NCBI GenBank assembly: GCA_964367355.1
Contig: CAYIWY010000002.1
Span: forward strand, 7,296 to 71,295
Source: an uncultured Gammaproteobacteria bacterium
GTDB taxonomy: Bacteria; Patescibacteriota; Microgenomatia; Woykebacterales; RBG-16-39-9b
Length of the DNA stretch: 64,000 nucleotides
Direction: 5' to 3'
This document shows positions 11,118 through 64,000 of the stretch, in pieces; within the stretch, counting starts at the first letter, position 1; each line of letters begins with the position of its first letter. The translations under genes were made by a program, and so were the position numbers. The notes beneath the pieces are model-generated. The model was given only the letters and a program-made list of their open reading frames with translations. It was not told where the DNA came from and ran no database searches.

Positions 11118-12389
11118 ATGACTTCACAACCACTTGCTGATCAAATGCGGCCCACAAATCTAGAAGGTTTTGTTGGTCAAAGTCATATCGTCGGCAAAGG
11201 TAAAATTATTTCCACGCTCTTGAAACAAGATAAGATCCCATCTCTAATATTCTGGGGGCCACCGGGATCGGGGAAAACTACTTTAGCAAAAATAATTGCC
11301 AATAAAACCAAAAGTTTTTTTGAATTCCACTCTGCTGTTGAGGTTGGGGTTAATGATATTAAAAAAGTAATTTATGAATCCAAAAATAGATTGGAAAAAG
11401 GGGAACCTACTATTCTCTGCATCGATGAAATTCACCGCTAGAACAAATCTCAACAAGCCTACCTACTGCCGTTTGTTGAAGATGGAACAATCATTTTGAT
11501 TGGTGCTACTACCGAAAATCCCTCTTTTGAGGTTATTGGCCCATTACTTTCAAGATCAAGAGTTATAATTCTCGAGCGCCTGGACCAAGAAAACATTAAA
11601 CAACTTGTTGAAAGCGCTTTGAAAGATAAAGAAAAAGGTCTGGGAAATGCCCGGATAAAACTCGAACCAGAAGCACTAAAATTACTTTTGGAAAACTCAA
11701 ACGGCGACGCTCGTACAACTCTCAACGCACTGGAAATTGCTGCCAATCTGACACAACTGCGGCTCGGCGAAAGAAAAGTAACTGTCAAAAAAATTGAACA
11801 AGCCTTAGGCAGCAAAAAACTGCTTTATGATAAAACCGGTGAGGAACACTACAATGTTATCTCTGCATTTATCAAAAGTTTGCGCGGGAGCGACCCTAAT
11901 GCCGCAGTTTACTATTTAGCAAGAATGCTCGAAGCAGGGGAGGATCCAGAATTCATCGCTCGCCGAATGATAATTTTAGCCAGCGAAGATGTTGGCAATG
12001 CCGACCCAAAAGCACTGCAGATTGCCGTTGCGGCAGCACACGCTTTACAATACGTCGGCCTACCCGAAGCTTCTCTAAATTTAGCACAAGCGGCAACTTA
12101 TCTAGCTACTACACCAAAATCCAATGCTAGTTATATGGCTCTGAAAAAAGCCCAAGCAGATGTCAAATATACTCTCAACGAACCTGTACCTCTGCATCTT
12201 CGTAATGCAGTAACCGATCTTATGGGAGATATCGGTTATGGTCAGGGCTACAAATACGCCCACGATTTTGACGGTGGAGTAGTTAAGCAACAGTTTCTTC
12301 CGGATAAATTAAAAGATAAACATTATTACGAACCCAAAGAAATTGGTTACGAAAAATACATTAAAGAACATCTGGAAAAACTCAAATAA
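11118..12389 (+). pseudogene. rarA: Replication-associated recombination protein A (RarA/MgsA) interrupted by an in-frame TAG at 11442-11444
   Basis: Walker A GPPGSGKTTLAK and …CIDEIHR-[TAG]-NKSQQAYLLPFVEDGTIILIGATTENPSFE. The stop replaces the conserved Phe of the HRFNKSQQ motif. Both halves (11118..11441 and 11445/11496..12389) are in the same frame. Confidence 0.85.
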
Positions 12390-27563: not shown

Positions 27564-28520
27564 TTAAGTTAGTTCGTCCTCTTCCGGACTAATCTCAATC
27601 GGAGCGGGTTTTGCTACAGATGCAGGTTGAACCACAGGTTTGGCAACCTCTTCTACTTTCGGTTCTGGTTCAATCGTAATTGCTTTCAGAGGCTCTGGTT
27701 TTATAACAACGGTTTCTTTTGCGGGTGGTTTAACTTCTGGTTGTTTTTCTACTTTCGCAACGCGAATGGAGTCATCTACATTTGCGGAGCGAATGGGTTC
27801 TGATATTTTCGGTGCCGGTTTTGGCGCCTCAACTTTTGGAGCTACTTTTGGAGCTTCCATCTTTTTTTCCTCCACTTTTTTCTCTTCAACTTTTTTTGGC
27901 TCCTCTTTCTTTTCTGTTGGTGCTTCTGTAACTTTAGCTTCTTTGACAACTGCTTTTTCTACTTTCTTCTCAGCCTCTTCTAATACTGGCTGTGGTTTTT
28001 CACTATCGGCTTCAAAACTTTTTTCTACCTTACCCTTAACCGACTCGATTGCCCCATAGGGAACAGTTAAGTTGTTTGCCGGTAGATGCAAAGTCACCTC
28101 ATTTCCAACATCAGCGCCAAAATGAGCTACAGCTGATGGTAAAACTTTATAAGAACCCTCTGGAGTGACCACCTTCCATTTACCATCCTTCTTAGTTAAG
28201 ATTCCCGTTGTCTTATGACGCTTTACATGTTCGATTTGCTTAAAACGTTTTTCCTTGCCTTCGTCAACAAGTTTTAGGCTGTCGCCAACAACCAACATAC
28301 TTTTACTAGCATAGTTTGCTGGCACCGGAAAGGTCTGGCCGTTCTCAGAGGCCATATTTTCACCATCAAAAATTCCGGCAATACCAGGAAGCTCAACCGC
28401 TTTTGGTTTAGCGATTACCCCAGAATCCACAAGATCGTTTAATAATTGTTTGGCCAGCTTTATACTACTCTCGGCTGCCCCTAGTGCTTGTCTGATTAAC
28501 TCAAGATTACTTTGATTCAT
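27564..28520 (-). CDS. Hypothetical protein with K/P/E/V-rich repetitive C-terminal half
   Basis: AGGAGG SD. The N-terminal ~190 aa is globular, followed by (EKKVEE/APKV/KPEP)n low complexity. Downstream of the T4CP-like gene. Confidence 0.5.
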   Translation of the reverse strand: MNQSNLELIRQALGAAESSIKLAKQLLNDLVDSGVIAKPKAVELPGIAGIFDGENMASENGQTFPVPANYASKSMLVVGDSLKLVDEGKEKRFKQIEHVKRHKTTGILTKKDGKWKVVTPEGSYKVLPSAVAHFGADVGNEVTLHLPANNLTVPYGAIESVKGKVEKSFEADSEKPQPVLEEAEKKVEKAVVKEAKVTEAPTEKKEEPKKVEEKKVEEKKMEAPKVAPKVEAPKPAPKISEPIRSANVDDSIRVAKVEKQPEVKPPAKETVVIKPEPLKAITIEPEPKVEEVAKPVVQPASVAKPAPIEISPEEDELT

Positions 28521-28538
28521 TTGTTTTTTCCTCCTTTA

Positions 28539-28625
28539 ATTATATCGTTAAGAAACTCTAAATTGCTCCATTATATCGTTAGGAAACTCATAATTTCATA
28601 ATTAGACTCAGGTATAATTGCTCCA
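28539..28625. repeat. Direct repeats in the promoter region (TTATATCGTTARGAAACTC x2; ATTGCTCCATTATA x2)
   Basis: Copies at 28539-28557 and 28571-28589, and at 28561-28575 and 28611-28625. Confidence 0.5.
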
Positions 28626-28631
28626 TTATAA

Positions 28632-31604
28632 TTACTTAAGATCATTTTGGGTTGGTGGAAAGCGAAATATTTCCACTTCTCCGGATGACTGCCCATCTTG
28701 CTCGACTTTAGGACTTTGATTTTGCGCTGTTGACTGGGAATTCTGATCCCCTACTTCGTTTACTCTCGGTTGATTTTGCAGCTGTGGCAAATCTTGATTT
28801 ATTTGTGTCATATTTGATTCCAAATCCTTCAAAAATTGGTTTGAATCAACTTCCTCTGAAAAAACTGGTTTTTCTGGTAAACCTTCTACTGTCTCTGGTT
28901 TTGAAATAACTTGTTGCGGTGATACCTGTTGTACAGGGTTAACTGGTTGCTCAATATTTTGCTTTTGCAGTCCCTGAGACAGCGGTAAAGTGGTTTCTTC
29001 AGGCTGACTTACCACTTCTGCAAGTAGATCAGCTAATGGTGAGTCCTCGGGGCTAATAGGGGTTGATTGAACAACAATCGCTGGTTGAGATCCTTCAATT
29101 GGTTGTTGGGCATCTATTACAGCCGCTGAAACAGCTGCTTGTGCAGCAGCTTTGGCCTCATCGATTGCCCATTGTGGCGGCAACGGTGGTTGACCAAGAC
29201 GGAATTTTGTTTCGGTCCATTTTTTTATTAATTTTTCGATTTTTTCCAGCTCTCGAGAGTATTTTTGACGAGAAAGTGAAATTGCTCGTTGAGAAAGATT
29301 TGTCGGATCCTTATAAGGTGCTAAGGAAATGGCTGAAAATGGTTGTGAAGACATATCGTCGATTTGTAGTTTTATATACATTTCAAACCTACCTAAATTA
29401 ATAAAATCATTTTCCAAAAATGTTGGTGAGTATTCTCTCTCCAAAAAGTGGGCATCCTGATTGCCAACCGCAAAACTTATCATCGTCCCAACGTTACCGA
29501 AAATTGCATCCCTGACAGCTTCCGGCATTTGTTCAATATATTGGTGCGTAACAATTAAATCGAGTCGGTATTTCCTCGCTTCAGAAAGAATCACCGCAAA
29601 AGAATCGGTGGCAAAGTTTTGAAACTCGTCAGCGTAAAGGAAAAAGTCGCTGCGTTGCTCTTCAGGAATATCAACCCGCCGCATAGCGGCAAATTGAAGT
29701 TGAGAAACAATCATCGCTCCAAGCAAAGAGGTGTTGTTGGCGCCGATACGACCGGAAGCAAGGTTAACAAAGAAAATCTTTTTCTGATTAATAATCTCAT
29801 CAATTTTAATACTTGATTTCGGCTGACCAACAATATTTCTGATTAATTCACTATTCAAAAATTGACCGACTTTATTTTGAATTGGGGCAATTGCTTCGGT
29901 AATCAAACGATCATTAGTTTCCATCTTGGCAAACTCTTCATTCCAATATTTTTTCATTTGCGGATCGGAAATTAAATTAACAATGTATTTTCGATAGTCA
30001 CGATCAACTAGCATACGAATAACTGAAAGTAAGGAGGTGTTGGGAACTTCAAGCAGTGTCAGAATACAATTTTTTAAAATATACTCAAGTCTTGGTCCCC
30101 AGCTCTCGGCGAAATATTTTTTGAAAACATCGACCAGAGTATCACCGATCAAAGTCCGTTGTCTTGGATCGACTAGCTCTAACATATTTAAAGCAACTGG
30201 GTATTGTGCGTCGGCCGGGTTGAAGATAACAACATCATCAAGTCGGTTTTCCGGCACAAACTCCAAAAGTTCATCGATCAACTGACCGTGCGGGTCAAGA
30301 ACAGCAACACCCTCACCGTTGCGCATATCCTGAATTATCATATTACTTATCAAAGTTGATTTCCCGACTCCAGTTTTACCGATCATATACATATGCTTGC
30401 GTCGATCCGGTCTCTTAATACCAAATTTAATTTCTTGATCACGGAAATAAGTTTTACCCATATAAGTGACGTTTTCTGTTGGTAAGTTAAGTGGTGGTTC
30501 GCTCTTTTTGGAGCGAGTCCAGGCAATGGTTGGGGTTTCGACTGACATATTCGGCAAATGGAAAATTGAGGCAAGCTCTTCGATATCCAATATGTAGTCC
30601 CCTGCTTCACCCTCAGGAAAGAGTCGGCTCTGGTAACTTTTTAACAAAGTAGCTGTTGTCGGACTATCAGGATCTTCCTCAAAACTGTTTAAAGAAGCAG
30701 TTGAGAATTGTTTGAAAGAAGCAACGGCGCTAGCCAAGCGCTGTTGTGCAGCTTCAGCAGAGTTACCAATAGAAATTACTCTTATTTTTGTCTCAAAACC
30801 TATCTTCGAAAGTTTATTCTCGATCATTTTCAAATCGAGTTCTTTTCCGGCAGAAAGTTTTGGCAGCTGTGGGGGTCCTACTCTGGGTGCTACAACCTCA
30901 GCAGGTCCGCGGGCAATATAAGGAAAAATATTTCCACCCACCGACATGATGTGTTTTCCAACATCAATCATAATTTGTGAGGCATTCAATGTAACCGGCT
31001 CTTGACCCTCACGGACCATCTGAACATACTCGTGACCACGTTCTTGCCAAAAATCATCTACCGGGCGCACCAAAATCTGAGCCCAAAGCTGCTCGCCATT
31101 ACGGACGCTACTTAAGGCACTAGTAACCGCTGCCAGTGGATCGACCTCAAAATCCCGAAAAGTTTTGATCGGAAGAATAAAATCTTTTGACAAAACTATT
31201 TCCGTACCGCTAACAACTGCTGAGGCACCAACACTTTTTGAATAATCGACTGCTTCACGAATTTCCGCAGTCGGATACTGCGCATAAATTTGACTTTCAA
31301 CGAAACTTTTGAATTGTCTAGGGGTAAAAACGTAAAAGCCGAGCCCTTCAGCTGAGCTGGCCATTTCCAGTGAGACATGCTCTTGAATTCCGGGGGTAAA
31401 CTTCAGTAAACCATGAAGCGAGGCAAACATTTGCTCGGCCGCGATCGGAAGTTTTTCGTTTTCACGCGGCAAACGAATGGAAAGTAGAACTCCCTCTTTG
31501 ATATCTGATTTTTTCGACTTGCCGGCTTCCTGCTGCAATGCGCTTCTATAAGCAAAAAAGAAGGCTACAAGAACGATTATTCCTAAAATTATGATTAAAG
31601 GCAT
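28632..31604 (-). CDS. Type IV coupling-protein-like ATPase (VirD4/TraG/TraD family), 990 aa, with N-terminal TM and Q/P-rich C-terminal tail
   Basis: N-terminal TM helix. Walker A MIGKTGVGKST. DPHGQ. Walker B FFLYADEFQNF (the DEF pattern typical of TraG/VirD4). The C-terminal ~200 aa is Q/P/S-rich low complexity. Confidence 0.7.
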   Translation of the reverse strand: MPLIIILGIIVLVAFFFAYRSALQQEAGKSKKSDIKEGVLLSIRLPRENEKLPIAAEQMFASLHGLLKFTPGIQEHVSLEMASSAEGLGFYVFTPRQFKSFVESQIYAQYPTAEIREAVDYSKSVGASAVVSGTEIVLSKDFILPIKTFRDFEVDPLAAVTSALSSVRNGEQLWAQILVRPVDDFWQERGHEYVQMVREGQEPVTLNASQIMIDVGKHIMSVGGNIFPYIARGPAEVVAPRVGPPQLPKLSAGKELDLKMIENKLSKIGFETKIRVISIGNSAEAAQQRLASAVASFKQFSTASLNSFEEDPDSPTTATLLKSYQSRLFPEGEAGDYILDIEELASIFHLPNMSVETPTIAWTRSKKSEPPLNLPTENVTYMGKTYFRDQEIKFGIKRPDRRKHMYMIGKTGVGKSTLISNMIIQDMRNGEGVAVLDPHGQLIDELLEFVPENRLDDVVIFNPADAQYPVALNMLELVDPRQRTLIGDTLVDVFKKYFAESWGPRLEYILKNCILTLLEVPNTSLLSVIRMLVDRDYRKYIVNLISDPQMKKYWNEEFAKMETNDRLITEAIAPIQNKVGQFLNSELIRNIVGQPKSSIKIDEIINQKKIFFVNLASGRIGANNTSLLGAMIVSQLQFAAMRRVDIPEEQRSDFFLYADEFQNFATDSFAVILSEARKYRLDLIVTHQYIEQMPEAVRDAIFGNVGTMISFAVGNQDAHFLEREYSPTFLENDFINLGRFEMYIKLQIDDMSSQPFSAISLAPYKDPTNLSQRAISLSRQKYSRELEKIEKLIKKWTETKFRLGQPPLPPQWAIDEAKAAAQAAVSAAVIDAQQPIEGSQPAIVVQSTPISPEDSPLADLLAEVVSQPEETTLPLSQGLQKQNIEQPVNPVQQVSPQQVISKPETVEGLPEKPVFSEEVDSNQFLKDLESNMTQINQDLPQLQNQPRVNEVGDQNSQSTAQNQSPKVEQDGQSSGEVEIFRFPPTQNDLK

Positions 31605-31800
31605 TTTTCCTCTCTTTTCTCCTCTCTAACTTAACTGGAGTTTACTCTTTTTTAGCTTTAAAGTCAATAAAAACGACAAAACTCCCCCGTAGGAGAGCTT
31701 TGTCTGAAGAAAGGACTAATTTTGGCCCTTTCTTCGGAAGAAAGGAGAGAGATCGTGAAAATAATAGCACCTTTTCTGCTAAAAGTCAAGATCATACTCT

Positions 31801-32892
31801 TTAAAAATCGAAAACCGAGGCAAAATCATTACCAATTTTTACTTTTATATCGCCTTCAATCGAATCCTTGTTACTTATTTTTTCCATTCTTACTCCAAGT
31901 ATTGTTTCTAAACGCTTAGCCAACAAATTATTTTTATCTTTAACTAGTATTCTACTTTTTTCTAATTCTTCAGCTTTAGAGACATTAAGCACGTTTCCTC
32001 CGAGGTTTGTGACAACAGCTTTCAGAATACTCCCTACACCTGGCACACTACTAGAATTCTCAATCTGAACGGCAGCTTCTTCCTTAGAAATACTGTTATC
32101 GCTCAAAAACAACCCAAGCTTATTTGCAGAGGATTGAGAATCAAAAATACCTTGACTATCAATACTCCTTGTCAAATCAATCAGACTAACCCTCTCGGGA
32201 GTCAAATTCTTACTAAACCAAATTAAACTATTGGCTTTATCCAATGTAATATTAGTTTTCATTTTTCTATCAAGATAATCTTTACTGTTACCCAATTTCC
32301 AGAAAAATCCCGGTGAATAAAAACTGTCAATTAATTCTTCCAAAACAGCCTTATTGATCCAATTTATTTTGTCATTAACTACAATGTAACCATCAAAAAA
32401 ATATCCGAGCGTTAGCATCAAAGACGCCTCTAGTCTATCAATATTTAAATTCCCATTCGTGAACGCCCGCTCAGAAAAAGATTTTGACAGCGTTAAAGTG
32501 TCAATTTTTGCTTGGGGGTTAATCTTAACTAATTTCACTTTTCTATCCCCTTTCTCCAAACTCAGAAAACCTAGTTCTGTCACTTTTTTATCGACCTGCG
32601 TAACAAGTAGTATATTTGTTCTTTGTTCTATATTTATCTCTCCTCGACTTGCAAATTTACTTTGTATAAAATGGAAGGGTTTTTGAATCTTACCAATAAG
32701 ACTTGGGACTTGAACAATAAGAGTCAGTGAAACTACTACAAGAAAAAATAATACCAAAACTCGAAAAAATTGACCAGATTTTTTCTTGGATCTTTCTTCG
32801 GCTAACTTTTTGCTTTGACTAGAAACTTGTTGATCGTAAAATCGATTTTTTGTCTGGTTCTTTAACATAGAATTAAATATTAGCACAAACAC
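31801..32892 (-). CDS. Membrane-anchored extracytoplasmic protein, weak LytR-CpsA-Psr (LCP)-like features
   Basis: A single N-terminal TM (FFRVLVLFFLVVVSLTLIV), then a soluble domain. The RTNILLVTQVD segment resembles the LCP core motif. Tentative. Confidence 0.4.
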   Translation of the reverse strand: MFVLIFNSMLKNQTKNRFYDQQVSSQSKKLAEERSKKKSGQFFRVLVLFFLVVVSLTLIVQVPSLIGKIQKPFHFIQSKFASRGEINIEQRTNILLVTQVDKKVTELGFLSLEKGDRKVKLVKINPQAKIDTLTLSKSFSERAFTNGNLNIDRLEASLMLTLGYFFDGYIVVNDKINWINKAVLEELIDSFYSPGFFWKLGNSKDYLDRKMKTNITLDKANSLIWFSKNLTPERVSLIDLTRSIDSQGIFDSQSSANKLGLFLSDNSISKEEAAVQIENSSSVPGVGSILKAVVTNLGGNVLNVSKAEELEKSRILVKDKNNLLAKRLETILGVRMEKISNKDSIEGDIKVKIGNDFASVFDF

Positions 32893-32941
32893 TTACGCTT
32901 GTTTTCTTGACACTTTAGCACTAATTGAATAACATTTAGTT

Positions 32942-33652
32942 ATGGATTCCCAACCAATTCAAAATACCGCGTCCTCCCCTTCAGGAGAACTTAAGCGATC
33001 AAACTTAAAGTCACCAAAAGCTTCGTTAATCGACCAAATTCAAAAATTAAGCCTGCTTACAAAAATAATTTCGGCTGCAGCAGTTTTTTTACTTTTGACA
33101 TTTCTGGTTTTGTTAGTACTGTTCTTAACAAACAATCAAAGGGAGCAATCTAAATCTGTTTCAACTACCAAAGTAGATGCTGTTGAAAAAGAACGGAATA
33201 GACAAAACGTAGCCAGTCAAACTGCCCTAGAGCAGCTGGAGCCGATAAATCAGCTGGAAAAGGCCTATGACGATTCTGTGGGCTCAGACAGCTCAAAAAG
33301 GAGCTTGGGTATCGATGCTGATGGAAACGCAATTATCGAATATGAGATTTCCTCAAAAGATGGGCAACTTATTTTGAAAACTTCTTATGAAAATTTTGCT
33401 GACCTGGCAAAGCGAGTCTTTAATATTCCGACAATAAAAAGACTAAATGTAACAACTTACGCCAATAAATTCACTGACCTCTTCGGTAAACCAAATGTTT
33501 TTGCGCTTAAACTCCAACTAACCAAAGAAACCAATTCCAAAATCAACTGGTCAATCAAGAAATATTCCTATGCTAATTACGCGACTATTCTCGATCTTCA
33601 CGAAATAAATCCTGATTTAACTAAAGACTATAAAGCCTTAACAAAAAAGTAA
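32942..33652 (+). CDS. Membrane-anchored hypothetical protein
   Basis: N-terminal TM (AAAVFLLLTFLVLLVLFL), then a 170-aa extracytoplasmic domain. Confidence 0.45.
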   Translation: MDSQPIQNTASSPSGELKRSNLKSPKASLIDQIQKLSLLTKIISAAAVFLLLTFLVLLVLFLTNNQREQSKSVSTTKVDAVEKERNRQNVASQTALEQLEPINQLEKAYDDSVGSDSSKRSLGIDADGNAIIEYEISSKDGQLILKTSYENFADLAKRVFNIPTIKRLNVTTYANKFTDLFGKPNVFALKLQLTKETNSKINWSIKKYSYANYATILDLHEINPDLTKDYKALTKK

Positions 33653-35335: not shown

Positions 35336-35373
35336 ATAGATTAATTATATAGTTAGAAAGCGAAAAATCAAAA

Positions 35374-40663: not shown

Positions 40664-41830
40664 TTACTTTGCTGTCCCCTCTTTAACTAACTGCCCAGAT
40701 AAATTGTACTGGGAGCCTTCGGAAAGAACAGTATAATTAAGATCGACATGTAAACAATTATCTTTTGGTGTGCATTTGCGTAATGTATTTACGGATAATA
40801 TATTTGAGTCAACCCATTTTGGCCCAGTTGCGTCTTTAACTAGAATTGTTTCCGTCTTTGAATCCAAATAATATATTAGAACGTCTGATCTTACCTGACC
40901 TCCTTCGCCACTTTCATCACGTGCAAAGGCAATTTTTGTTTTATCTGGTGAAAGAACAGGTCGTGTCCAATTATTTAGAATCTTAGTACTTGCTTTTGTA
41001 GAAATATCTACTCTGTAAACTGGGTATTGGGCACTTAGCTCCATGTAATAAAAAGTGTTGTCTGAATACCAAAAAGCTTGCGCTCCTCCTAGTGAATAAA
41101 GTTTCTTACCATTTGTATCAGTAATTACCAAAGTTGTAGGGTTGGCGACTGTTTCCCCATCTGTTACCTCTGAAACTGTATTTACCATCATCACAAAGCT
41201 TACATTTGGGGAAATCTGGATGGAACTTTGATCCCACCATATACCACCCCGCCCACCTTGATTTATTGACTGAAGAATAGTTTCTTTTCCAGTTTTTATA
41301 TCAAGCAACGTGTAATCAAGTTCCTTATCTTCAAATCTTGAGTCGGTTTGATATGCAACAAGACCTGCTTCTTTATTGTAGTCAAAATTAATATGATTCC
41401 AATATTTATAGTTATTTTGCCCATTTTTCAAACCAAAATATTCAACATTGTAAATATACTTAGTATGAATAATTAAACTGTTATTTCTATAGATTTCACA
41501 ATAATTTTCAGGCCCAGAAACAATAGAAACAAAATTAGTATAAGGGTTAACAATAACTAGTTGCTGACATTTAAAAGTTAGATCGTCAACCTTAGCTTCT
41601 ATTGGCTTAACTTTTGGCTCAGTTTTTGTCTCGGAAGAAGAAAATGTGGCTTGCTTTTGTGCTGAAGAAGTTGAAGTTTTGATGTCACTAGCAGTTTTTG
41701 TTTTGTTATTTATTATCAAAAACAACAGAATAATTACAAAAATGATTCCAAACACTGATATTAAGATAAGTTTTTTATTGGATTTATACTTGCCTAGCAA
41801 TACTTCTATAAAACCTTGTATTTCAGACAT
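40664..41830 (-). CDS. Membrane-anchored beta-propeller (PD40/TolB-like) protein
   Basis: N-terminal TM. Repeated …SPDKTKIAF…-type PD40 motifs. Confidence 0.45.
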   Translation of the reverse strand: MSEIQGFIEVLLGKYKSNKKLILISVFGIIFVIILLFLIINNKTKTASDIKTSTSSAQKQATFSSSETKTEPKVKPIEAKVDDLTFKCQQLVIVNPYTNFVSIVSGPENYCEIYRNNSLIIHTKYIYNVEYFGLKNGQNNYKYWNHINFDYNKEAGLVAYQTDSRFEDKELDYTLLDIKTGKETILQSINQGGRGGIWWDQSSIQISPNVSFVMMVNTVSEVTDGETVANPTTLVITDTNGKKLYSLGGAQAFWYSDNTFYYMELSAQYPVYRVDISTKASTKILNNWTRPVLSPDKTKIAFARDESGEGGQVRSDVLIYYLDSKTETILVKDATGPKWVDSNILSVNTLRKCTPKDNCLHVDLNYTVLSEGSQYNLSGQLVKEGTAK

Positions 41831-51808: not shown

Positions 51809-53494
51809 CTATTTCTTCAGAACCAAGTTACCTCTGACGTAAGTCAAATAGCGCAAGCTATCGACCTCGCGTAACATTTCCTCCGGCGAGTAAACTCCAC
51901 CAAAGAAAAATGAAAATAGACAGCTGATCAACTGATCAATCTTGTATCTCCGAGAATCAACACCATTTGGGCTGGGCTCAACGAAAGTCTTGTAATCAGA
52001 ATGCTCCGAATTAAGCAGTACTGCCACAAGCCGATTTTCTTCGTTCGTGCGTACCTGAGCACGCGGCTCTTCCGGTTTCATTGGCATCGGAAAAACTTCG
52101 AACTTCGGCCGACTGCTGGCTGTTTTCTTAGGCTTGCTTGGATCAAGAGTGTCAGTAGGCTTCCCACCAGGAAGTATGTCAACCGATTTCGCACCCCCAC
52201 CAGCTGGACCAGGACAACCACCAGATTTACTCCCACCTAACTTTTTGATCGGAACATTTATCTCTTCCCGCCCACCAACTTGCGGACGTTTCTTAACCGG
52301 AAAACCATCCAGCAGGTAACCTTGGTCAACAAAAACGTCAACGACAAGGTTGCGCAACTGTTTGGTTACATTATCCCGAACCTCGGGACGCTGGGCATCA
52401 ATCTCGCTAAGGAACTCCAGCAAAGCCTTTTCAAGTTCCTTAAGACCCTTCTTGAAGGCCTCAAAGTTTCCCTCCGGGTCAGAGATTAGGACTTTCTTAG
52501 CCGAATCTGTCTTGCAGAAATCCGCTGAAAAATCCATGTCAAGTCGACCACTATTCCAAGGAGCACAATCAAAACCTTCAATTTCGGTAATATCATTAAA
52601 AACCCGACGGTGTCCCCACCAAACCCGACAGCGACCATCGTGCCGGTGCGGCAGAACCCCACCAGACCAAGTCACCCACTCTTGGTGTGACTTACCATAA
52701 CTAGTCCACACCAAACACTTTTCTTGCTTTCCGTTTGAAAGCTGGAACTCGTTGACATGGGCAATTACTGGTGAAACGTAGACGCTTGGCTTCTTCTGAC
52801 CCTTTTTGTCGATTTCGACGATCTCAATCACGATTTTTGGGTCAGAGTTGGGAAGGTCCTTACGGTATTCCTGGGCGAAAAAGCTCTCGAGCTTTCTGAT
52901 ATTTATCTGGCTCATCTTTGCCGGATCAATGTCAGAAATTTCAACATCCGTCCCGATAGTCGGCCGGTTTTTGCTTTCCGGAGCAAGTTTCGGACGAATC
53001 TTACGACCGTCCTCACCTAACCCAAACATCAAAGTCCAGGTTTGCTCCGAAGTTGCCTCCGAACGACTGGTAACCAAGCAAATCCGACCAACAATTTCCC
53101 AAGCATGAACTCCCACTTGGTTGATACCGCGCATGCGGGCAATCTGACCCTTCCGCGAAGTATCGTTGTTAATCATGACTGCCCAGTTACGCTTACTCTC
53201 CAAACCCCCGCCAATTTCTGACGGCACTTGGATCATCCGGTTACGGGTCATTCCATGAGAATTGTCAGAGACGATAATCCGGTTGCGGAGGCGGTCAATA
53301 GTTACAGTTATGATGTACTCTTTCCGCTTCTTATCCGCCATCCACAGAGAGTCAAGACTGTTATCAACCAGCTCTCGCAAGTACTCCGGAGTTGATGAAA
53401 CCAACCTCGCTACAAGCGAGATAACCGAATCAGTATCCCCGAAGTTATAATCAACATACTCAAAGTCCACATCGTCCGCTGCTACCATCATCAC
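51809..53494 (-). CDS. GHKL (Bergerat-fold) ATPase, MORC/HSP90/MutL-like N-terminal domain, 561 aa
   Basis: N-box ELVDNSLDS (aa 41-49) and G1 box IIVSDNSHGM (aa 73-82). GGGAGGTG SD. The start is 4 nt after the TAG stop of the upstream gene. The C-terminal two-thirds are unassigned. Confidence 0.6.
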   Translation of the reverse strand: MMMVAADDVDFEYVDYNFGDTDSVISLVARLVSSTPEYLRELVDNSLDSLWMADKKRKEYIITVTIDRLRNRIIVSDNSHGMTRNRMIQVPSEIGGGLESKRNWAVMINNDTSRKGQIARMRGINQVGVHAWEIVGRICLVTSRSEATSEQTWTLMFGLGEDGRKIRPKLAPESKNRPTIGTDVEISDIDPAKMSQINIRKLESFFAQEYRKDLPNSDPKIVIEIVEIDKKGQKKPSVYVSPVIAHVNEFQLSNGKQEKCLVWTSYGKSHQEWVTWSGGVLPHRHDGRCRVWWGHRRVFNDITEIEGFDCAPWNSGRLDMDFSADFCKTDSAKKVLISDPEGNFEAFKKGLKELEKALLEFLSEIDAQRPEVRDNVTKQLRNLVVDVFVDQGYLLDGFPVKKRPQVGGREEINVPIKKLGGSKSGGCPGPAGGGAKSVDILPGGKPTDTLDPSKPKKTASSRPKFEVFPMPMKPEEPRAQVRTNEENRLVAVLLNSEHSDYKTFVEPSPNGVDSRRYKIDQLISCLFSFFFGGVYSPEEMLREVDSLRYLTYVRGNLVLKK

Positions 53495-53498
53495 CTCC

Positions 53499-54341
53499 CT
53501 ACAACTCCACTCGAGAGTTCAGCCACACTTGAAAATCAGCTTCTTTAATCAAAGAAGCCAAACCAGTTGCAAGTCGCAGTACAAAAGCTGGATCAAAATT
53601 GCCCTTGAGATCTTTACGAGGCCCCTCATTCTGAGCGAAGAAGTTGAGTGCGCTATTAAGTGCACCCAAAGTTTCTTCAAAAGTATCTCCTGGATTTCTG
53701 GCATCAAATCTATTTGGATAGTCAAGGTCAAAACCGACTGAGTCTTTTTCAATACCTGTCGCACGTCTGGCGACTTCAGCCATACCTTCGAAAAACCTCG
53801 CCACTAATTCCGTGTTTGTTGGGTCCTCAACTTGACCGAGTCGCGCCTCAACCCGAGCAAGTCTTAAATCAAATTCGTTTCCGGTTTCGACCTGCTTGAA
53901 AATCCTCTTTGCTTTGGCGACACTAGTCTTCTCAACTTCACCCGTAGCAAGTTTCAAGCCGATCGTCGCAAAAACTTTTTGAGCGACCATTTCTGAAGCA
54001 ATGTTCTGGTAAAGTGCCGAGTTAAGGGTTCCGGCTGTCAAACCGATTTTTTCGGAGAGCTGGTTCGGAGTCATTTCATTTTCGAACATATACTCCATTA
54101 AGTGTGTCAGAACTTTCGGCCTCAAACTACTAACCTTACGGTCAGTCGCCAACCAAACTCGCCATAAGGTCCGAGGTTGAAGAGCCTCCTTTTTTCGAAA
54201 CCGACGTAGAATTGGACCATCGATCTTGAATTTCTTACCGACATTTAGTCGACGGGCAATTTCTTCGTTATCGAATTCATCAAGTTTTTGCTCACGCAGA
54301 AACTCTTCAAAATCTGCTACCTGCTTTTTCACTGAAGCCAA
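53499..54341 (-). CDS. Hypothetical 280-aa protein with HTH-like segment, co-transcribed with the GHKL ATPase
   Basis: GGAGGTG SD, then a TTG start. MTPNQLSEKIGLTAGTLNSALYQ resembles an HTH. Translationally coupled to the downstream gene. Confidence 0.45.
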   Translation of the reverse strand: MASVKKQVADFEEFLREQKLDEFDNEEIARRLNVGKKFKIDGPILRRFRKKEALQPRTLWRVWLATDRKVSSLRPKVLTHLMEYMFENEMTPNQLSEKIGLTAGTLNSALYQNIASEMVAQKVFATIGLKLATGEVEKTSVAKAKRIFKQVETGNEFDLRLARVEARLGQVEDPTNTELVARFFEGMAEVARRATGIEKDSVGFDLDYPNRFDARNPGDTFEETLGALNSALNFFAQNEGPRKDLKGNFDPAFVLRLATGLASLIKEADFQVWLNSRVEL

Positions 54342-55722: not shown

Positions 55723-57528
55723 ATGTCCGAACCTGCCGCACCACAAACCCAAACTAATCAAACTCCACTTAATTCAAACATTGTGTCCAACGGATCTAAA
55801 ACTGGTACTCAGGAAGAAATAAATAAGCTACTCGCCGCAGTCGAAAAGTTTCGCAAAACAGGATTGGTCGAAGATTCAGAAGTAACTTTTGCCAAAGAAA
55901 AAGTTTTACCCAAACTCGGGCTTTCATCAGAACAAATTAATGAGTTAGGACCAGTCGGAATAATGGTCAAACTTCAGGAGGAAGCTGATAAAAAACGCCT
56001 CAGCGCAAGTGGTATCAATTCTAACCTGGAACCTGCAATACCAGAAGTTGTTGAAACTAGCATTCCAAATTTAGTCAAACCAATACCTTCATCACCACCT
56101 CCCAAGATCAAAACCGAACTGGAAACAAATATTGATGAAAACAGTTTTAAGGAACTAACTAAACAGGTTTCGAAAATGACAGACAATCTGTCAGTCGATA
56201 TTGACAAGGAAATCAAAAGACAACTGGAGGAAAAGAAAGCTCTGGAACAAGCCCAAGACAAGGTTGATACGGTTTTGAAGGAACACGAGGAACTTTCCCT
56301 ACCCCAAATAAATAAAGAACCACAAACCCCAAAACCAACTATTGGACTTTTTCATACAAAAACTGTCGACAACACAGAAAATAAGCCACCAATTATTCAC
56401 GACCTTACCTACCCAATTCATCAACCAGAACCAACACAACCAGAGAACATTTCGACTGACCCACTCGAAGCGAGTATTGAAAATGCTATGAATTCATTGA
56501 AAGAAGGTGACTCTATTGGTAGTGAGTGGGTATTAAAGAAAATCCTAACAACGAGTTTCGGTAACAAAAAATCCCCTTTTTATGAACTTCTGAATAAATC
56601 CGGGGCAGCTTGGACACTTAGTCCTGAAGAAATGCGTGACGCGCTTCGCAGCAACATTTTGTCAAAAAACACCACCCCAGTGAAAGAAATTAACAGTGAA
56701 AAAGTCCAACCGCTTCACAATTTAAATGAACCGGATGATAAAATTGATGCTAAAACAAGTACTCAAATAACTGCAGGAGAGGTCGAGAGAATAAAAGAGC
56801 AACTCTCTGAAGAGAAAAAAGTTAATCATCCTTCCGATCAACCAAAGGAGCCCCACGAAGAAAGACATTCTGAGACAAAAGAGCATACTAAACCCTTTGA
56901 ACACCATGAGACGACAAGAACTAAACCTGAAATGGAAAAAAGCGAGCAAAAATTTGAAAAAGATCAAGTTGACTCAAAAGAACAAGGGCAAACAAAATTC
57001 AACCAAAAACAAATTGACTTTCTTAACAAAATCCACTCTGACCAAAGTCTCTGGAATTCCTTTACCTCGTTCAATCCAGAACTATGGCAGTATTTTCACG
57101 ACCTCTACGAAGAAGGTCGCTTAAGCAGCATCGGAATCGACGCTCATCCCCTATTTGATAAACTTGCTAGTAGTGACTTTGGCAGCTTAATTGACATTCA
57201 AAAAGGAGATTCGGCTAGTAAAATTCTGTCCGAGGCCGGTTACAACTTGTCCTGGACCCCGGAAGATGCGGAAATATTTGCAGTTCATCTTATCGCAAAT
57301 CATAAAATTCTAACAGATTCCGTCAGAAAATTGGAAATTAGCGGGCTAACTGCTCCTTCTCTACCCTCACCAAAGGATGTAATCGATTTAACTCTCGGTG
57401 CTAAAAACGGCAACCATGAGTCATTACACAAGCTTGAAGAGGCACTTAATTTCTTACCTGTGAACAGCAAGTTCAAGCTAATAAAACCTCCTCAACTAGA
57501 CTTATTGAAAAAATACTTTAAGCGTTAA
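55723..57528 (+). CDS. Hypothetical 601-aa acidic/low-complexity protein
   Basis: E/K/P-rich with no TM. The globular C-terminal ~150 aa is of unknown function. Confidence 0.5.
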   Translation: MSEPAAPQTQTNQTPLNSNIVSNGSKTGTQEEINKLLAAVEKFRKTGLVEDSEVTFAKEKVLPKLGLSSEQINELGPVGIMVKLQEEADKKRLSASGINSNLEPAIPEVVETSIPNLVKPIPSSPPPKIKTELETNIDENSFKELTKQVSKMTDNLSVDIDKEIKRQLEEKKALEQAQDKVDTVLKEHEELSLPQINKEPQTPKPTIGLFHTKTVDNTENKPPIIHDLTYPIHQPEPTQPENISTDPLEASIENAMNSLKEGDSIGSEWVLKKILTTSFGNKKSPFYELLNKSGAAWTLSPEEMRDALRSNILSKNTTPVKEINSEKVQPLHNLNEPDDKIDAKTSTQITAGEVERIKEQLSEEKKVNHPSDQPKEPHEERHSETKEHTKPFEHHETTRTKPEMEKSEQKFEKDQVDSKEQGQTKFNQKQIDFLNKIHSDQSLWNSFTSFNPELWQYFHDLYEEGRLSSIGIDAHPLFDKLASSDFGSLIDIQKGDSASKILSEAGYNLSWTPEDAEIFAVHLIANHKILTDSVRKLEISGLTAPSLPSPKDVIDLTLGAKNGNHESLHKLEEALNFLPVNSKFKLIKPPQLDLLKKYFKR

Positions 57529-61082: not shown

Positions 61083-64000
61083 TTAGCAATACCCTGGATA
61101 GGCTATTTTGAAACCACCCCACTCACAGTGGTTACCTGCTTTAAATTTAACTACTGCAGCTTCTACCTGAGAATACGGATTCCAGGCTCCATTATCAATG
61201 TTGACACCGTTTGTAGTTTCATAATCATAATACTTGCCGTTATATGGACTGACTAAGGGATCCTCACTGTTTGTATCTCTGCCTGGTATTTTCCAACAGC
61301 CATTCCAACCATTAATACTACCTTTATTGAAATAAGTTGTGCTTCCTGAACCACCATCCAAGCCTGCCACTTTTTTGCCGGTGCTATTCCAAGTCGGTGC
61401 CATAAACTGGAACACGCCAATTTCACCGTTACCACCAGCCGCACAAAGACCTTTATTTCTTTGTTGAAGATCATTTCCTGAGCTAAAGAGAGTCCCATCT
61501 TCATTTGAAACTGTATCCCACATAACCTTGGTCAGCGAAACTCCTGGCACTTTAGGATCAGCAATTTCAGCAGTTTGATTTGCAATGTAATTAGCAAGGT
61601 CATCCCAGGATCCGTCACCAGTTACACCTTTTGGAATAGAGGTGGTGGGCGCAATCGGACAGTCTTTTGTCCTAAAAGATTGGGTGTCACTAAAGTATGG
61701 GTAACCGTCACGATTGGTGTTCACCCGCCAATTGAAGGTAGTACTAGCTGGCAAATTAATTGTTGTATAAAAAGCTGTGTTTGGACTGAAAACGCTTGGA
61801 GTTGGGACAGAATTTGCAAAAGTTCCTGCCAAAAAGTTGTTGTCATATATTGAGTAGTCTAAAATTTGTGTTGGCAGAGATTTTGCACTTGTAAATAGTG
61901 TGCCTGACTTCCAGGCAATGTTAATTGTTCTAGACCTTCCATCGGGGCTGCACTCGCTTTGCGTGATGAGCTGATTCGCAGTCGTAGCTACTACTCCATC
62001 TTGATAACTACTAATATTAAAGCTTGCGATTGGTGAGAATAGTATATGAAAGATGTCACAACTTGGATTTGTACACGCAATAACCATCCAGTTCCAGTTA
62101 CCCTTAAACAGAGGGGCAGGAATATAATTTGGATTTATTGTTCCGTTTTGATCAGACTCCCAGTTCCAAGTACCATCAGAAGCGTTAAGTGGCGATAGAC
62201 AAAGCTTTGGATCAGTTGTCCCAGTACAAATTTTGGTAGAGACATCCTTAATCCAGTAACCTCCCTCATTGAAAGTGTTTATTTTATTACCTTCAGACTG
62301 TTTCAACAAAACACGGTAATGATCGATTGTTCCCACAGCTGGTTTAGCCGCAAGCCAAGATAAATGACCAGGTACGCTCGAAAAAGATACTCGAAGATCG
62401 CTTGGTGGGGATTGAACTAAAGTCCCCGCTACTGTAAAACTTGACTCAACAAAACCAGTAAGTGGGCAAGTTACCGTCGTACAAGACCAGACAAAATAGT
62501 AATACGTTTTTCCGGCAGTTAACATTAAAGGCTTGGCTCCAATATTCCCAACAGAATACCAATTAAGATCAGTCCAGTTTCGTACACAACTCGTTGTACT
62601 ACAATCAAGAGCACCTAGATAAGATTTCCAGAGCCGCGTAGCCGAGATCAGATCAGCGTGATTATCCGAAACCGCAAGTCCGTAGTAAGCCGCTTGAGAG
62701 TTCGGCTTCCAGACAAAGGATGGCTGGGGACTCTGATCAGGCCCAATTGGGGATTGCAAAGTTACGGCTATACTTGTAGCGCATAATTCTTTATTAAAGT
62801 TTGCGGGTGTACCAGTCTCTGTCGCTCCATCAGTTTTTGCATAAGTTACATCAAATACTTCCCCTGCACTATTTTTGGCCCATACTCGCCAGAAATAGGT
62901 CTTGGCCGGAGAAAGGGCTAATACACGATTAACGGTCAGGGGTGTTGATGTGAAATTGTCCTTCCAATCCCCACCAACTCGATCACCTGTCAGGCTTAAC
63001 TGGGTTCCGGAAACAACTTTATTGGCAAAACCAGCAAAATTACTACTTTCCGACACGTCAACTGCATACGAAGCAGCATTAGTTCCCTTCCAACTAAAGC
63101 GCAGCCCACTTCCCCAAATTACTCCGTTGGTTCCGCAAATTAGTGCTTTTATGTTTGTATTTAAACTATAAGGCTGGGACGGTTTTGTTGCGGTAGTTGG
63201 AGTAGAAAGCGGTGGCTTATCCAATTGATCGATTACGCTATAAACTTCCCCAGCAGAATTTTTTGCCCAAACCCACCAATAATAGGTTGTAGTTTCCGCC
63301 AAATTTAGTTTACCAGCGTTGTTATAATCAACTGTCCCCTTGGTAACCCACCCACTATCACCATAAGTAAAGTAAAACCCAGTATCTCGTGTGAGGGCTA
63401 CTGGCATAGTTTTTTTAACATAATTGGTCGTAAAAGTCTTGTCGGAAGATATCAAAATATTAAACTCAGTTGTACTACTCCCGTTCCAGGAAAATTTATG
63501 AGTTGCTCCCCATCTACCTGATGGTACGGAAAGAAGTGCATCCGTATCAACCAAAGAAGTCGGGCTCGCCGGCTTAGCAGCGACCGGAATAAGTGGTGGT
63601 TTAGTTATTTTTAGATTTGGGATTGACGTACCTGTTTGGGGAATATTATATATTGCACCTCCAATATTTTTAGCATAGACTCGCCAATAGTAAGTTGTCC
63701 CTTCCTGCAAGGCTAGTTGCCCATTAGCTGAATAAGTCGCGGTTCCTTGGTTGATCCAACCACTATCCCCCAACACTGAGTAAGTCGCTAAAGCATCAGC
63801 TTTGGTAACATTGAGTATCCGATTAACGAAGTGTCCGCTGGCAAAGTTCTGATCCGAAGAAATATCAACTGCAAACTGATCAGCATTTGCTCCGGTCCAT
63901 TGGAACTTATGGGTTGTTCCCCAAACACCTGAAGGTACGCTAGTTTGTGAATCAGAATCTACAAGAGCCGCGACTGAGGGTAAGGAGGCTATAGGTGGTG
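61083..64000 (-). CDS. Giant repeat-containing surface protein with C-terminal lytic-transglycosylase-like domain (5' end beyond the window)
   Basis: Repeated roughly 100-aa modules carrying …TYYW(R/W)VWAKNSAGE… (FN3/PKD-like). The C-terminus GVFQFMAPTW resembles an SLT-domain motif. The frame stays open past the GTG at 63776, to the window edge. Confidence 0.6.
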   Translation of the reverse strand, partial: PPIASLPSVAALVDSDSQTSVPSGVWGTTHKFQWTGANADQFAVDISSDQNFASGHFVNRILNVTKADALATYSVLGDSGWINQGTATYSANGQLALQEGTTYYWRVYAKNIGGAIYNIPQTGTSIPNLKITKPPLIPVAAKPASPTSLVDTDALLSVPSGRWGATHKFSWNGSSTTEFNILISSDKTFTTNYVKKTMPVALTRDTGFYFTYGDSGWVTKGTVDYNNAGKLNLAETTTYYWWVWAKNSAGEVYSVIDQLDKPPLSTPTTATKPSQPYSLNTNIKALICGTNGVIWGSGLRFSWKGTNAASYAVDVSESSNFAGFANKVVSGTQLSLTGDRVGGDWKDNFTSTPLTVNRVLALSPAKTYFWRVWAKNSAGEVFDVTYAKTDGATETGTPANFNKELCATSIAVTLQSPIGPDQSPQPSFVWKPNSQAAYYGLAVSDNHADLISATRLWKSYLGALDCSTTSCVRNWTDLNWYSVGNIGAKPLMLTAGKTYYYFVWSCTTVTCPLTGFVESSFTVAGTLVQSPPSDLRVSFSSVPGHLSWLAAKPAVGTIDHYRVLLKQSEGNKINTFNEGGYWIKDVSTKICTGTTDPKLCLSPLNASDGTWNWESDQNGTINPNYIPAPLFKGNWNWMVIACTNPSCDIFHILFSPIASFNISSYQDGVVATTANQLITQSECSPDGRSRTINIAWKSGTLFTSAKSLPTQILDYSIYDNNFLAGTFANSVPTPSVFSPNTAFYTTINLPASTTFNWRVNTNRDGYPYFSDTQSFRTKDCPIAPTTSIPKGVTGDGSWDDLANYIANQTAEIADPKVPGVSLTKVMWDTVSNEDGTLFSSGNDLQQRNKGLCAAGGNGEIGVFQFMAPTWNSTGKKVAGLDGGSGSTTYFNKGSINGWNGCWKIPGRDTNSEDPLVSPYNGKYYDYETTNGVNIDNGAWNPYSQVEAAVVKFKAGNHCEWGGFKIAYPGYC

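Follow-up and report, generated by a model that had tools for sequence, protein, structure and literature searches.

A DUF8128-containing, coupling-protein-like ATPase in a Patescibacterial chromosome: a candidate translocase outside conjugation

We analysed a gene set at positions 27564–33652 of a 64-kb window (the whole stretch of contig CAYIWY010000002.1 studied here, to which all coordinates refer unless a locus is named), centred on a 990-residue ATPase that joins a DUF8128 domain to a motor resembling those of type IV coupling proteins (T4CPs). This ATPase was found to be an ordinary member of a catalogued Patescibacteria-wide family, functionally uncharacterised, that is vertically inherited in a chromosomal and non-conjugative context. 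Our guarded preference is to regard the enzyme as a core, vertically inherited and exapted translocase of the T4CP/VirB4 type with a non-conjugative chromosomal role, and not as a fragment of a conjugative element; handling of DNA independently of any adjacent type IV secretion system (T4SS) is our leading guess for that role. What the present analysis adds to earlier work is a VirB4-like fold predicted for the DUF8128 domain, two paralogue clades, split-gene forms, a conserved peptide in the C-terminal tail and a conserved cytoplasmic neighbour.

The ATPase gene (whole coding sequence 28632..31604, −) is flanked by three open reading frames (ORFs) here called up363, down318 and div236. A preceding sequence-only reading of the same DNA had described these four ORFs, a single N-terminal transmembrane (TM) helix, Walker A and B motifs and a Q/P-rich tail in the ATPase, and a tail rich in K, P, E and V in down318, all of which were found in place. 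The host, sampled from groundwater, is a reduced-genome Patescibacterium, as had been presumed, and its nearest named relatives are Woykebacteria. The window has the content of a housekeeping chromosome, with genes for ClpB, DnaB, EF-P, HisRS, RF-1, L31, RuvC, YebC, RluD, Lgt and tRNA-Leu, with no shift or anomaly in GC content across its 64 kb and with a single copy of the family ATPase.

The ATPase motor

The ATPase begins with a membrane anchor at residues 1–24 (31533..31604, −), the only TM segment found in a hydropathy scan and seen as a helix at residues 2–26 in the structural model. Because a K/R-rich stretch follows this helix, an N-out/C-in topology is predicted, which would place the body of the protein in the cytoplasm. 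The motor itself (residues ~397–800, 29205..30416, −) was delineated with Pfam, PDB profile and fold searches as a T4CP-type nucleotide-binding domain carrying an inserted all-alpha domain. Motif scans placed Walker A (GKTGVGKS) at residues 409–416 (30357..30380, −) and Walker B (FFLYADE) at residues 654–660 (29625..29645, −). Among 17 homologues, the residues G409, K410, T411, G412, G414 and K415 of the former and D659, E660, F661 and Q662 at the latter were invariant, as were R677-K678 and H687-Q688, and the region from Walker B through these pairs aligned with the corresponding segment of TrwB. With these motifs invariant and aligned with TrwB, the ATPase is probably active.

The ATPase and the public protein P0001 have the same sequence (100% identity), and the precomputed Pfam matches of P0001 are PF26449 (DUF8128), PF10412, PF01935 and PF02534. 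In our own searches the motor, which had been proposed to be of the TraG/VirD4 type, indeed matched TrwB_AAD_bind (PF10412) over residues 401–717 with 46.4 bits against a cut-off of 20.5, T4SS-DNA_transf (PF02534) with 24.7 bits against 20.1, and DUF87 with 29.7 bits against 23.2. All of 17 relatives likewise matched TrwB_AAD_bind and DUF87, with TraG-D_C found in 13 of the 17. When a family profile was compared with the sequences in the PDB, TrwB was the best match (6e-5), followed by DotL (0.02). Other models scored below their cut-offs, with the NCBIfam TraD models far below theirs (38.9 versus 366), a local match to NCBIfam CedD at 25.8 bits (E 4e-6) versus a cut-off of 600, and the VirB4 models AAA_10 and TIGR00929 at 17.6 versus 27.5 and 12.1 versus 643, respectively. 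The CagE_TrbE_VirB model did not match the ATPase, and no NCBIfam HerA model matched the whole protein at E<=0.1.

In a full-length AlphaFold2 (AF2) model the motor was confidently predicted, with eight helices (residues 480–606; predicted local distance difference test score, pLDDT, of 76–94) lying between core strands, which we assign on the basis of the model as the all-alpha domain of T4CPs. A fold search with this model returned HerA, VirB4, TrwB, Cag-beta and DotL; the alignments to VirB4 chains spanned 885–949 columns, and TrwB was matched with a template modelling score (TM-score) of about 0.55. The motor is thus one of the FtsK/HerA superfamily, with intact catalytic motifs and closest in sequence to the T4CPs.

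A membrane-anchored motor of this superfamily followed by a P/Q-rich, linker-like region could also be read as an FtsK-like housekeeping pump, a functional stand-in that handles the chromosome at the membrane or septum, whether in segregating it or in resolving dimers. The near-universal presence and vertical inheritance of the family agree with such a role, as do its neighbours, which are RuvC and YebC in the lineage of the window and DprA-TopA and LigA elsewhere. These DNA-metabolism genes are, however, ordinary conserved housekeeping pairs, and the adjacency may therefore be incidental. Moreover, FtsK_SpoIIIE (PF01580) gave no match at E<0.1 for the window ATPase and only weak ones in 8 of the 17 relatives (best 4.6e-4), the winged-helix gamma domain of FtsK was not detected in the ATPase, its membrane part is a single TM helix and not polytopic, and TM7x has a gene annotated as ftsK (PMC10768705), albeit by annotation only. 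A role as a chromosome pump was accordingly given a distinctly low probability. The sequence-only reading had itself named clustering with FtsK/SpoIIIE, or a complete conjugative system next door, as findings that would speak against a solitary coupling protein; neither an FtsK_SpoIIIE match in the ATPase nor adjacent genes of a T4SS or an integrative and conjugative element were found.

The DUF8128 domain

The TM helix and the P-loop are separated by about 360 residues of high conservation, which the sequence-only reading had not recorded as a domain and which carry PF26449 (DUF8128) in the public precomputed annotation. This domain (residues ~36–396, 30417..31499, −) was modelled alone with AF2 from an alignment of 68 database homologues, giving a pLDDT of 84 and a predicted TM-score (pTM) of 0.75. 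Foldseek searches of the PDB with this model gave 14 significant matches, all of them TrwK/VirB4 chains of the R388 T4SS (E 6e-7 to 3.5e-5, probability 1.0, ~400–476 aligned columns, TM-scores 0.35–0.39), and the first match outside VirB4 was an unrelated oxidase at 2e-3. Sequence-profile searches with the domain found nothing in the PDB or NCBIfam. The likeness of the predicted fold to the N-terminal domain of VirB4 is moderately supported by the modelling.

Used as a query, the domain retrieved 2,379 representative clusters (50% identity level), in which it was either fused to the ATPase or formed stand-alone proteins of ~420–450 residues. A literature search for 'DUF8128' found no papers in the searched library, and the main texts of Wang 2023 and Meheust 2019 make no mention of T4CP or VirD4.

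Compared with canonical T4CPs (TrwB of R388, VirD4, TraD, DotL and Cag-beta), the ATPase thus shares the all-alpha insertion in the nucleotide-binding domain, the membrane anchor and a C-terminal extension, but it has a single TM helix where two are usual, a folded domain of ~360 residues that moves Walker A to position 409, and no linked relaxase/Dtr or T4SS genes in the 64 kb or in the 80 related loci described below; its gene is instead a chromosomal one, inherited vertically and with paralogues. VirB4 (TrwK of R388) resembles it in having an N-domain followed by a motor, in being the only significant fold match of the DUF8128 model and in aligning over ~900 columns at full length; in contrast to VirB4, the ATPase has a T4CP-type motor, lacks a sequence-level VirB4 match and has no VirB3, VirB6 or VirB8 neighbours. 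HerA was a top fold match of the motor, and DUF87 scored above its cut-off, whereas the N-domain matches VirB4 and not a HAS barrel, and no NurA gene is found nearby.

Another reading is that of a VirB4-like membrane dislocase or assembly ATPase, acting on pilins or envelope proteins and tied to biogenesis of the cell surface. The predicted fold of the N-domain, matching VirB4 alone, and the whole-protein VirB4 alignments that cover both domains are in its favour; the order of TM helix, N-domain and motor would moreover recall the VirB3-VirB4 fusions of some conjugative systems (PMC12102498), and genes for the envelope or for export (LCP, SecD/SecF) are repeatedly found in the vicinity. Yet the sequence models of VirB4 do not recognise the ATPase, its motor bears the signatures of T4CPs, the neighbourhood contains no gene for a pilin, VirB3 or VirB6, and Patescibacteria already own a dedicated VirB4 (PMC12102498). 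On balance we hold such a dislocase to be improbable.

The C-terminal tail

The motor is followed by a Q/P-rich tail (residues ~801–990, 28635..29204, −) that is disordered judging from composition and from the model, with Q at 15%, P at 12% and a pLDDT below 50 over the ~190 residues from 800 to 990. Its length and sequence vary between homologues, with the exception of a terminal peptide, GEVEIFRFP at residues 975–983 (28656..28682, −), which formed the sole conserved column block of the tail in the alignment of 17 homologues. The pattern GE[IVLF]x[IVLF] occurred within the last 45 residues of 72 of 116 full-length homologues. Such a pattern is typical of docking motifs, and we accordingly regard the peptide as a candidate one, for which a docking role may be inferred.

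Family distribution and gene neighbourhoods

More than 4,500 homologues of the ATPase were retrieved, all sharing one domain set; those with names came from Woykebacteria, CPR3, Saccharimonadia and similar groups; over 100 listed homologues had 48–87% identity to the ATPase together with the same architecture and precomputed Pfam matches. The window protein has the TM helix, PF26449 and PF10412/PF01935 in one polypeptide and belongs to the same family as the Patescibacterial proteins combining DUF8128 with TrwB_AAD_bind, which PGAP names 'type IV secretion system DNA-binding domain-containing protein'. A survey from 2025 (PMC12102498) had counted 5,713 VirD4-type T4CP homologues in 2,918 of 3,035 Patescibacterial genomes (~96%), roughly two per genome, of which 148 were near virB4; VirB4 was present in 2,417 of the 3,035 genomes (T4SS in ~80%), relaxases were almost absent, and in Southlakia epibionticum the T4CP homologue was non-essential whereas the T4SS was essential. 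The authors of that survey raised exaptation as a possibility, and with their counts an orphan coupling protein in the candidate phyla radiation (CPR) was already known as a phenomenon. The notion of a solitary coupling protein in the sequence-only reading was hence right in that the protein is T4CP-like and an orphan, but not in the sense of being unusual, because it belongs to this catalogued phylum-wide family, nor of being canonical in architecture.

For comparison of gene neighbourhoods we used 80 related loci with our own ORF clustering, together with a neighbour-joining (NJ) tree of 82 family ATPases. Nearly all of the loci carry the names of Patescibacteria, Saccharibacteria or other CPR bacteria, and three are named as other phyla. 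In Group I (Woykebacteria, WWE3, Dojkabacteria and the window) the gene order was RR, RluD, LCP-like, ATPase, down318-like, TPR (−), YebC, RuvC and DUF5656, and the Woykebacteria, WWE3 and Dojkabacteria ATPases had 46–74% identity to that of the window in the best tblastn segment. In Group II (Saccharibacteria and others, 44 loci) a gene of ~350 residues with Sigma70_r4 and two HARE-HTH domains was found immediately upstream of the ATPase, with varying surroundings of DprA-TopA, SecDF, LigA or AlaRS. Homology between the two kinds of upstream genes of ~350 residues was considered and rejected, one kind being LCP-like and extracytoplasmic and the other Sigma70_r4 with HARE-HTH. The HARE-HTH protein (L025-L085, for example at L061:6790-7845) precedes clade-B ATPases and is a candidate DNA-binding partner that is absent from the window.

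Clades A and B stood apart in the NJ tree, with the window ATPase in clade B, and the ATPases grouped by the pattern of their neighbouring genes; judging from locus names, the tree also suggests that the groups follow taxonomy. Within the family the window copy is thus of clade B and Group I, with an LCP-like gene upstream, down318 downstream and no HARE-HTH neighbour. Tandem paralogues were found at eight loci (L019, L022-L026, L030, L034) in the order A, down318-like, (HTH), B, and also at L018 and L039; at the tandem loci the clade A copies had 35–38% and the clade B copies 44–48% identity to the window ATPase. These tandem pairs match the approximately two T4CP homologues per genome found in the literature. 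At seven further loci (L043, L047, L060, L062, L074, L076, L081) the gene was split into a DUF8128 protein of 424–488 residues and an adjacent motor of ~490–600 residues, a form that matches the many stand-alone DUF8128 proteins of ~420–450 residues in the representative search.

None of the 80 loci showed synteny of the ATPase with T4SS genes, nor a second VirB4-like ATPase within ±8 kb. In the window, no T4SS/VirB, relaxase, integrase or pilin family was found among the genes with Pfam matches, and the earlier statement that no VirB4, VirB6, relaxase or pilin gene is in view therefore holds for each of those genes; since several window ORFs lack any annotation, very divergent T4SS components are possible there.

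The absence of linked T4SS genes bears on the possibility that the ATPase is a genuine coupling protein, that is, the substrate receptor of a chromosomal Patescibacterial T4SS encoded elsewhere, which would deliver effectors or DNA to a VirB4/VirB6 channel during epibiotic growth. Among profiles and PDB sequences alike, T4CPs match the ATPase best, with the TraG-D_C signal in most members (13/17). The tail of TraD binds TraM, and the terminal peptide of the tail recalls that interaction by analogy. T4CP genes are also often remote from virB4, and most Patescibacteria (~80%) have a T4SS (PMC12102498). Nevertheless, the family is wider than VirB4 (2,918 versus 2,417 genomes of 3,035) and has about two paralogues per genome, its S. 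epibionticum copy is dispensable where the T4SS is not (PMC12102498), canonical T4CPs carry no extra VirB4-like domain, and in the 80 loci the synteny is with housekeeping genes and never with those of a T4SS. We thus find this possibility doubtful, albeit one to be taken seriously.

Relatives on mobile elements were also found. Nine IMG/VR contigs (L086-L094) encode motor-only homologues without DUF8128, with 29–51% identity over residues ~373–813. In five (L089, L090, L091, L093, L094) of seven such elements of ~42–47 kb a second, more distant T4CP-like ATPase lies nearby, that of L094 carrying a Replic_Relax domain, and in L087 the genes next to the ATPase encode a serine recombinase and a DNA methylase. 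These homologues fit a motor that would have derived from the coupling proteins of mobile elements and later become fused to a VirB4-like N-domain. They could also be taken to indicate that the window gene is what decay has left of an integrated element, conjugative or mobilisable. That, however, is very improbable, because neither an integrase nor a relaxase, a tRNA junction or a GC shift is present in the window, Woykebacteria, WWE3 and Dojkabacteria loci share its order of housekeeping genes, and the catalytic residues are fully conserved. Rfam and tRNA scans likewise found no RNA element and no tRNA junction at the ATPase locus.

Genes flanking the ATPase

The gene down318 (27564..28520, −) encodes 318 residues, with an N-terminal domain at residues 1–165 (28026..28520, −) made up of a coiled-coil helix and a beta-rich core, and a polyampholyte tail (27567..28025, −) defined by its composition of E 20%, K 18%, P 14% and V 13% and containing short imperfect tandem repeats of 12 and 15 nt. 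No TM segment was found in a hydropathy scan. Whereas the tail is not conserved in homologues, the N-domain has the invariant motif NYASKSxLVxGDxLK and in 18 of the 80 loci is encoded by the gene next after a family ATPase, in varied lineages and contexts and with ATPases of both clades. The conserved neighbour of the ATPase across contexts thus appears to be the N-domain of down318, cytoplasmic by prediction, and the conserved candidate for a partner is therefore not a membrane protein. At one locus (L038:8004-11297) a single ORF of 1,097 residues has the ATPase fused in frame with a down318-like domain, as a Rosetta-stone fusion or else as an artefact of assembly through a lost stop codon. 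The 183 homologues of down318 are all labelled 'hypothetical' and none has a Pfam domain; a profile of the family found only coiled-coil noise in the PDB and sub-threshold SH3-like hints in Pfam.

The stretch from the ATPase stop codon to the start of down318 (28539..28630, −) contains repeated promoter-like elements, as revealed by a repeat search. The paired direct repeats reported earlier for this region are real, consisting of a tandemly duplicated 31-nt unit (28539-28600, copies 77% identical) and of the exact 15-mer TATAATGGAGCAATT, which occurs at 28561-28575 and again at 28616-28630. Allowing up to two mismatches, TATAATGGAGCAATT has three matches in the 64 kb, a number equalled by 0 of 100 shuffles. 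Each repeat unit upstream of down318 contains a TATAAT box, and there is a sigma-70-like match at 28599-28570. The repeats had been thought of as possible operator sites; the simplest reading of their sequence is rather that they would be duplicated −10 promoter elements for down318. A similar TAACTATATAAT is found at 35344-35355 (−), just upstream of a Kef-like gene, and the pattern TAAC(G/T)ATATAAT occurs once at that position (35344-35355, −) and twice before down318 (28539-28581, −). This pattern may be an extended −10 promoter consensus of the host.

Upstream of the ATPase, up363 (31801..32892, −) is a 363-residue ORF, for which public gene calls place the start at 32868 to give 355 residues. 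It has one TM segment at residues 38–70 (hydropathy scan), and the weak likeness to LCP (LytR-CpsA-Psr) proteins that had been noted from sequence was strengthened when a profile of its family matched LCP crystal structures at 4e-7 to 1.8e-3, including Lmo1026 (4e-7), TagU (2.4e-5) and also TagT and TagV. LytR_C scored 20.3 bits in up363, below the cut-off of 22.2, while being present in 14 of 15 family members (best 2.9e-11), and the Pfam LCP model (PF03816) matched 3 of the 15. Hence up363 looks like a divergent homologue of the LCP plus LytR_C ligases of cell-wall glycopolymers, which it resembles in its single TM helix and probably in an extracytoplasmic LCP-like core and a C-terminal LytR_C; it differs from them in being very divergent, with LytR_C below cut-off in this copy and the LCP model rarely matched in the family.

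An up363-like gene was found upstream of the ATPase in 14 of the 80 loci, all within one larger housekeeping synteny block. A sequence scan located a strong terminator-like hairpin after up363 (31675..31704, −) with a 13-bp stem and a T-run, from which it may be inferred that up363 and the ATPase form separate transcripts, and the ATPase is preceded by a promoter-like site, TTGACT-17-TAAACT (31639..31667, −), found by consensus match only. We consider up363 to be probably a syntenic neighbour of the ATPase and not a functional partner.

On the other side of up363, div236 (32942..33652, +) is an ORFan of 236 residues with one TM segment at residues 33–67 (hydropathy scan). Its Pfam matches were sub-threshold only, and neither tblastn nor iterated HMM searches found homologues of it in the 80 related loci. 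It is merely adjacent to, and outside, the ATPase system. The proposal that the ATPase has membrane partners among its neighbours therefore did not hold, with up363 set apart by the terminator-like hairpin and the promoter-like site, div236 lacking homologues in the related loci and down318 being the conserved neighbour.

Other features of the window

A few observations concern other parts of the window. At 51809-54341 (−) a protein of 561 residues with a weak match to GHKL-type ATPases (HATPase_c_3) is followed by one of 280 residues with a faint winged-helix match; the two are otherwise unannotated and may be a MORC-like or defence-type pair. Large ORFs without any Pfam family are found at 61083-63776 (−; 897 residues), 55723-57528 (+; 601 residues) and 40664-41830 (−; 388 residues). 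An AAA+ gene resembling MgsA/RarA is split in two ORFs (+), one of 107 residues with RuvB_N/AAA at ~11118-11441 and one of 297 residues with AAA_assoc_2/MgsA_C at 11496-12389, which could be due to a frameshift, a pseudogene or a sequencing error.

Discussion

How might an exapted T4CP/VirB4-type translocase of this kind work? The ATPase would form a membrane-bound hexameric ring that, driven by ATP, threads a polymer on the cytoplasmic side of the membrane, with the VirB4-like DUF8128 domain serving for oligomerisation and for docking to membrane components. The terminal peptide of the tail would recruit a cytoplasmic adaptor, which in the lineage of the window could be the adjacent down318 and in most other classes the DNA-binding protein with Sigma70_r4 and HARE-HTH domains. 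As the threaded polymer, DNA or a nucleoprotein would be most probable, and is favoured by descent from T4CPs, by the all-alpha domain and by the neighbour with Sigma70_r4 and HARE-HTH domains in most classes.

Several points weigh against this proposal. A DNA substrate is deduced from homology to T4CPs and from the DNA-binding neighbour of other loci, which the window lacks, and with LCP and SecDF among the neighbours the substrate could instead be a protein or an envelope component. A distant T4SS elsewhere in the genome may use the ATPase as its coupling protein. The VirB4 likeness of DUF8128 comes from one method, with modest TM-scores and without sequence-level support; down318 showed no recognisable fold or function in PDB and Pfam profile searches, and the one fusion joining it to the ATPase could have arisen through faulty assembly. 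Saccharibacteria, finally, already have a route for natural transformation, through ComEC and type IV pili (PMC12857230).

The closest architectural analogue of the ATPase family would be CedB/CedD of the archaeal Ced system. In the Sulfolobales that system comprises two chromosomal paralogues with a TM helix, a VirB4-like N-terminal domain and an ATPase, and it imports DNA (PMC11868833). The Patescibacterial family is like it in its TM helix, in a domain predicted to resemble the VirB4 N-terminal domain, in its ATPase of the HerA/VirB4 superfamily and in its two co-occurring paralogues with a chromosomal, non-conjugative setting. It is unlike CedB/CedD in that the CedD score is far below cut-off, the motor is T4CP-like with an all-alpha domain, and no gene for a CedA-like channel lies nearby. 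One may extend the analogy to a Patescibacteria-wide, T4SS-independent motor, intermediate between VirB4 and VirD4, in which a VirB4-type N-domain and a VirD4-type motor together with a small tail-docked adaptor (of the down318 or HARE-HTH type) would import, export or partition DNA in these nucleotide-auxotrophic organisms. This extended proposal is speculative and, in our view, unlikely to be correct in full.

The window locus itself is an ordinary representative of its family, with nothing unique to it. What makes the family of interest is that T4CP-type ATPases are kept in ~96% of the surveyed Patescibacterial genomes despite extreme genome reduction. The N-domain with its predicted VirB4-like fold, the two clades of paralogues, the split genes, the tail peptide and the conserved adaptor-like neighbours turn a domain of 'unknown function' into concrete hypotheses, and with Southlakia epibionticum being genetically tractable, hypotheses on the family are testable. 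If the family moves DNA or effectors, its function would bear on how these epibionts acquire nucleotides or genes, or on how they manipulate their hosts.

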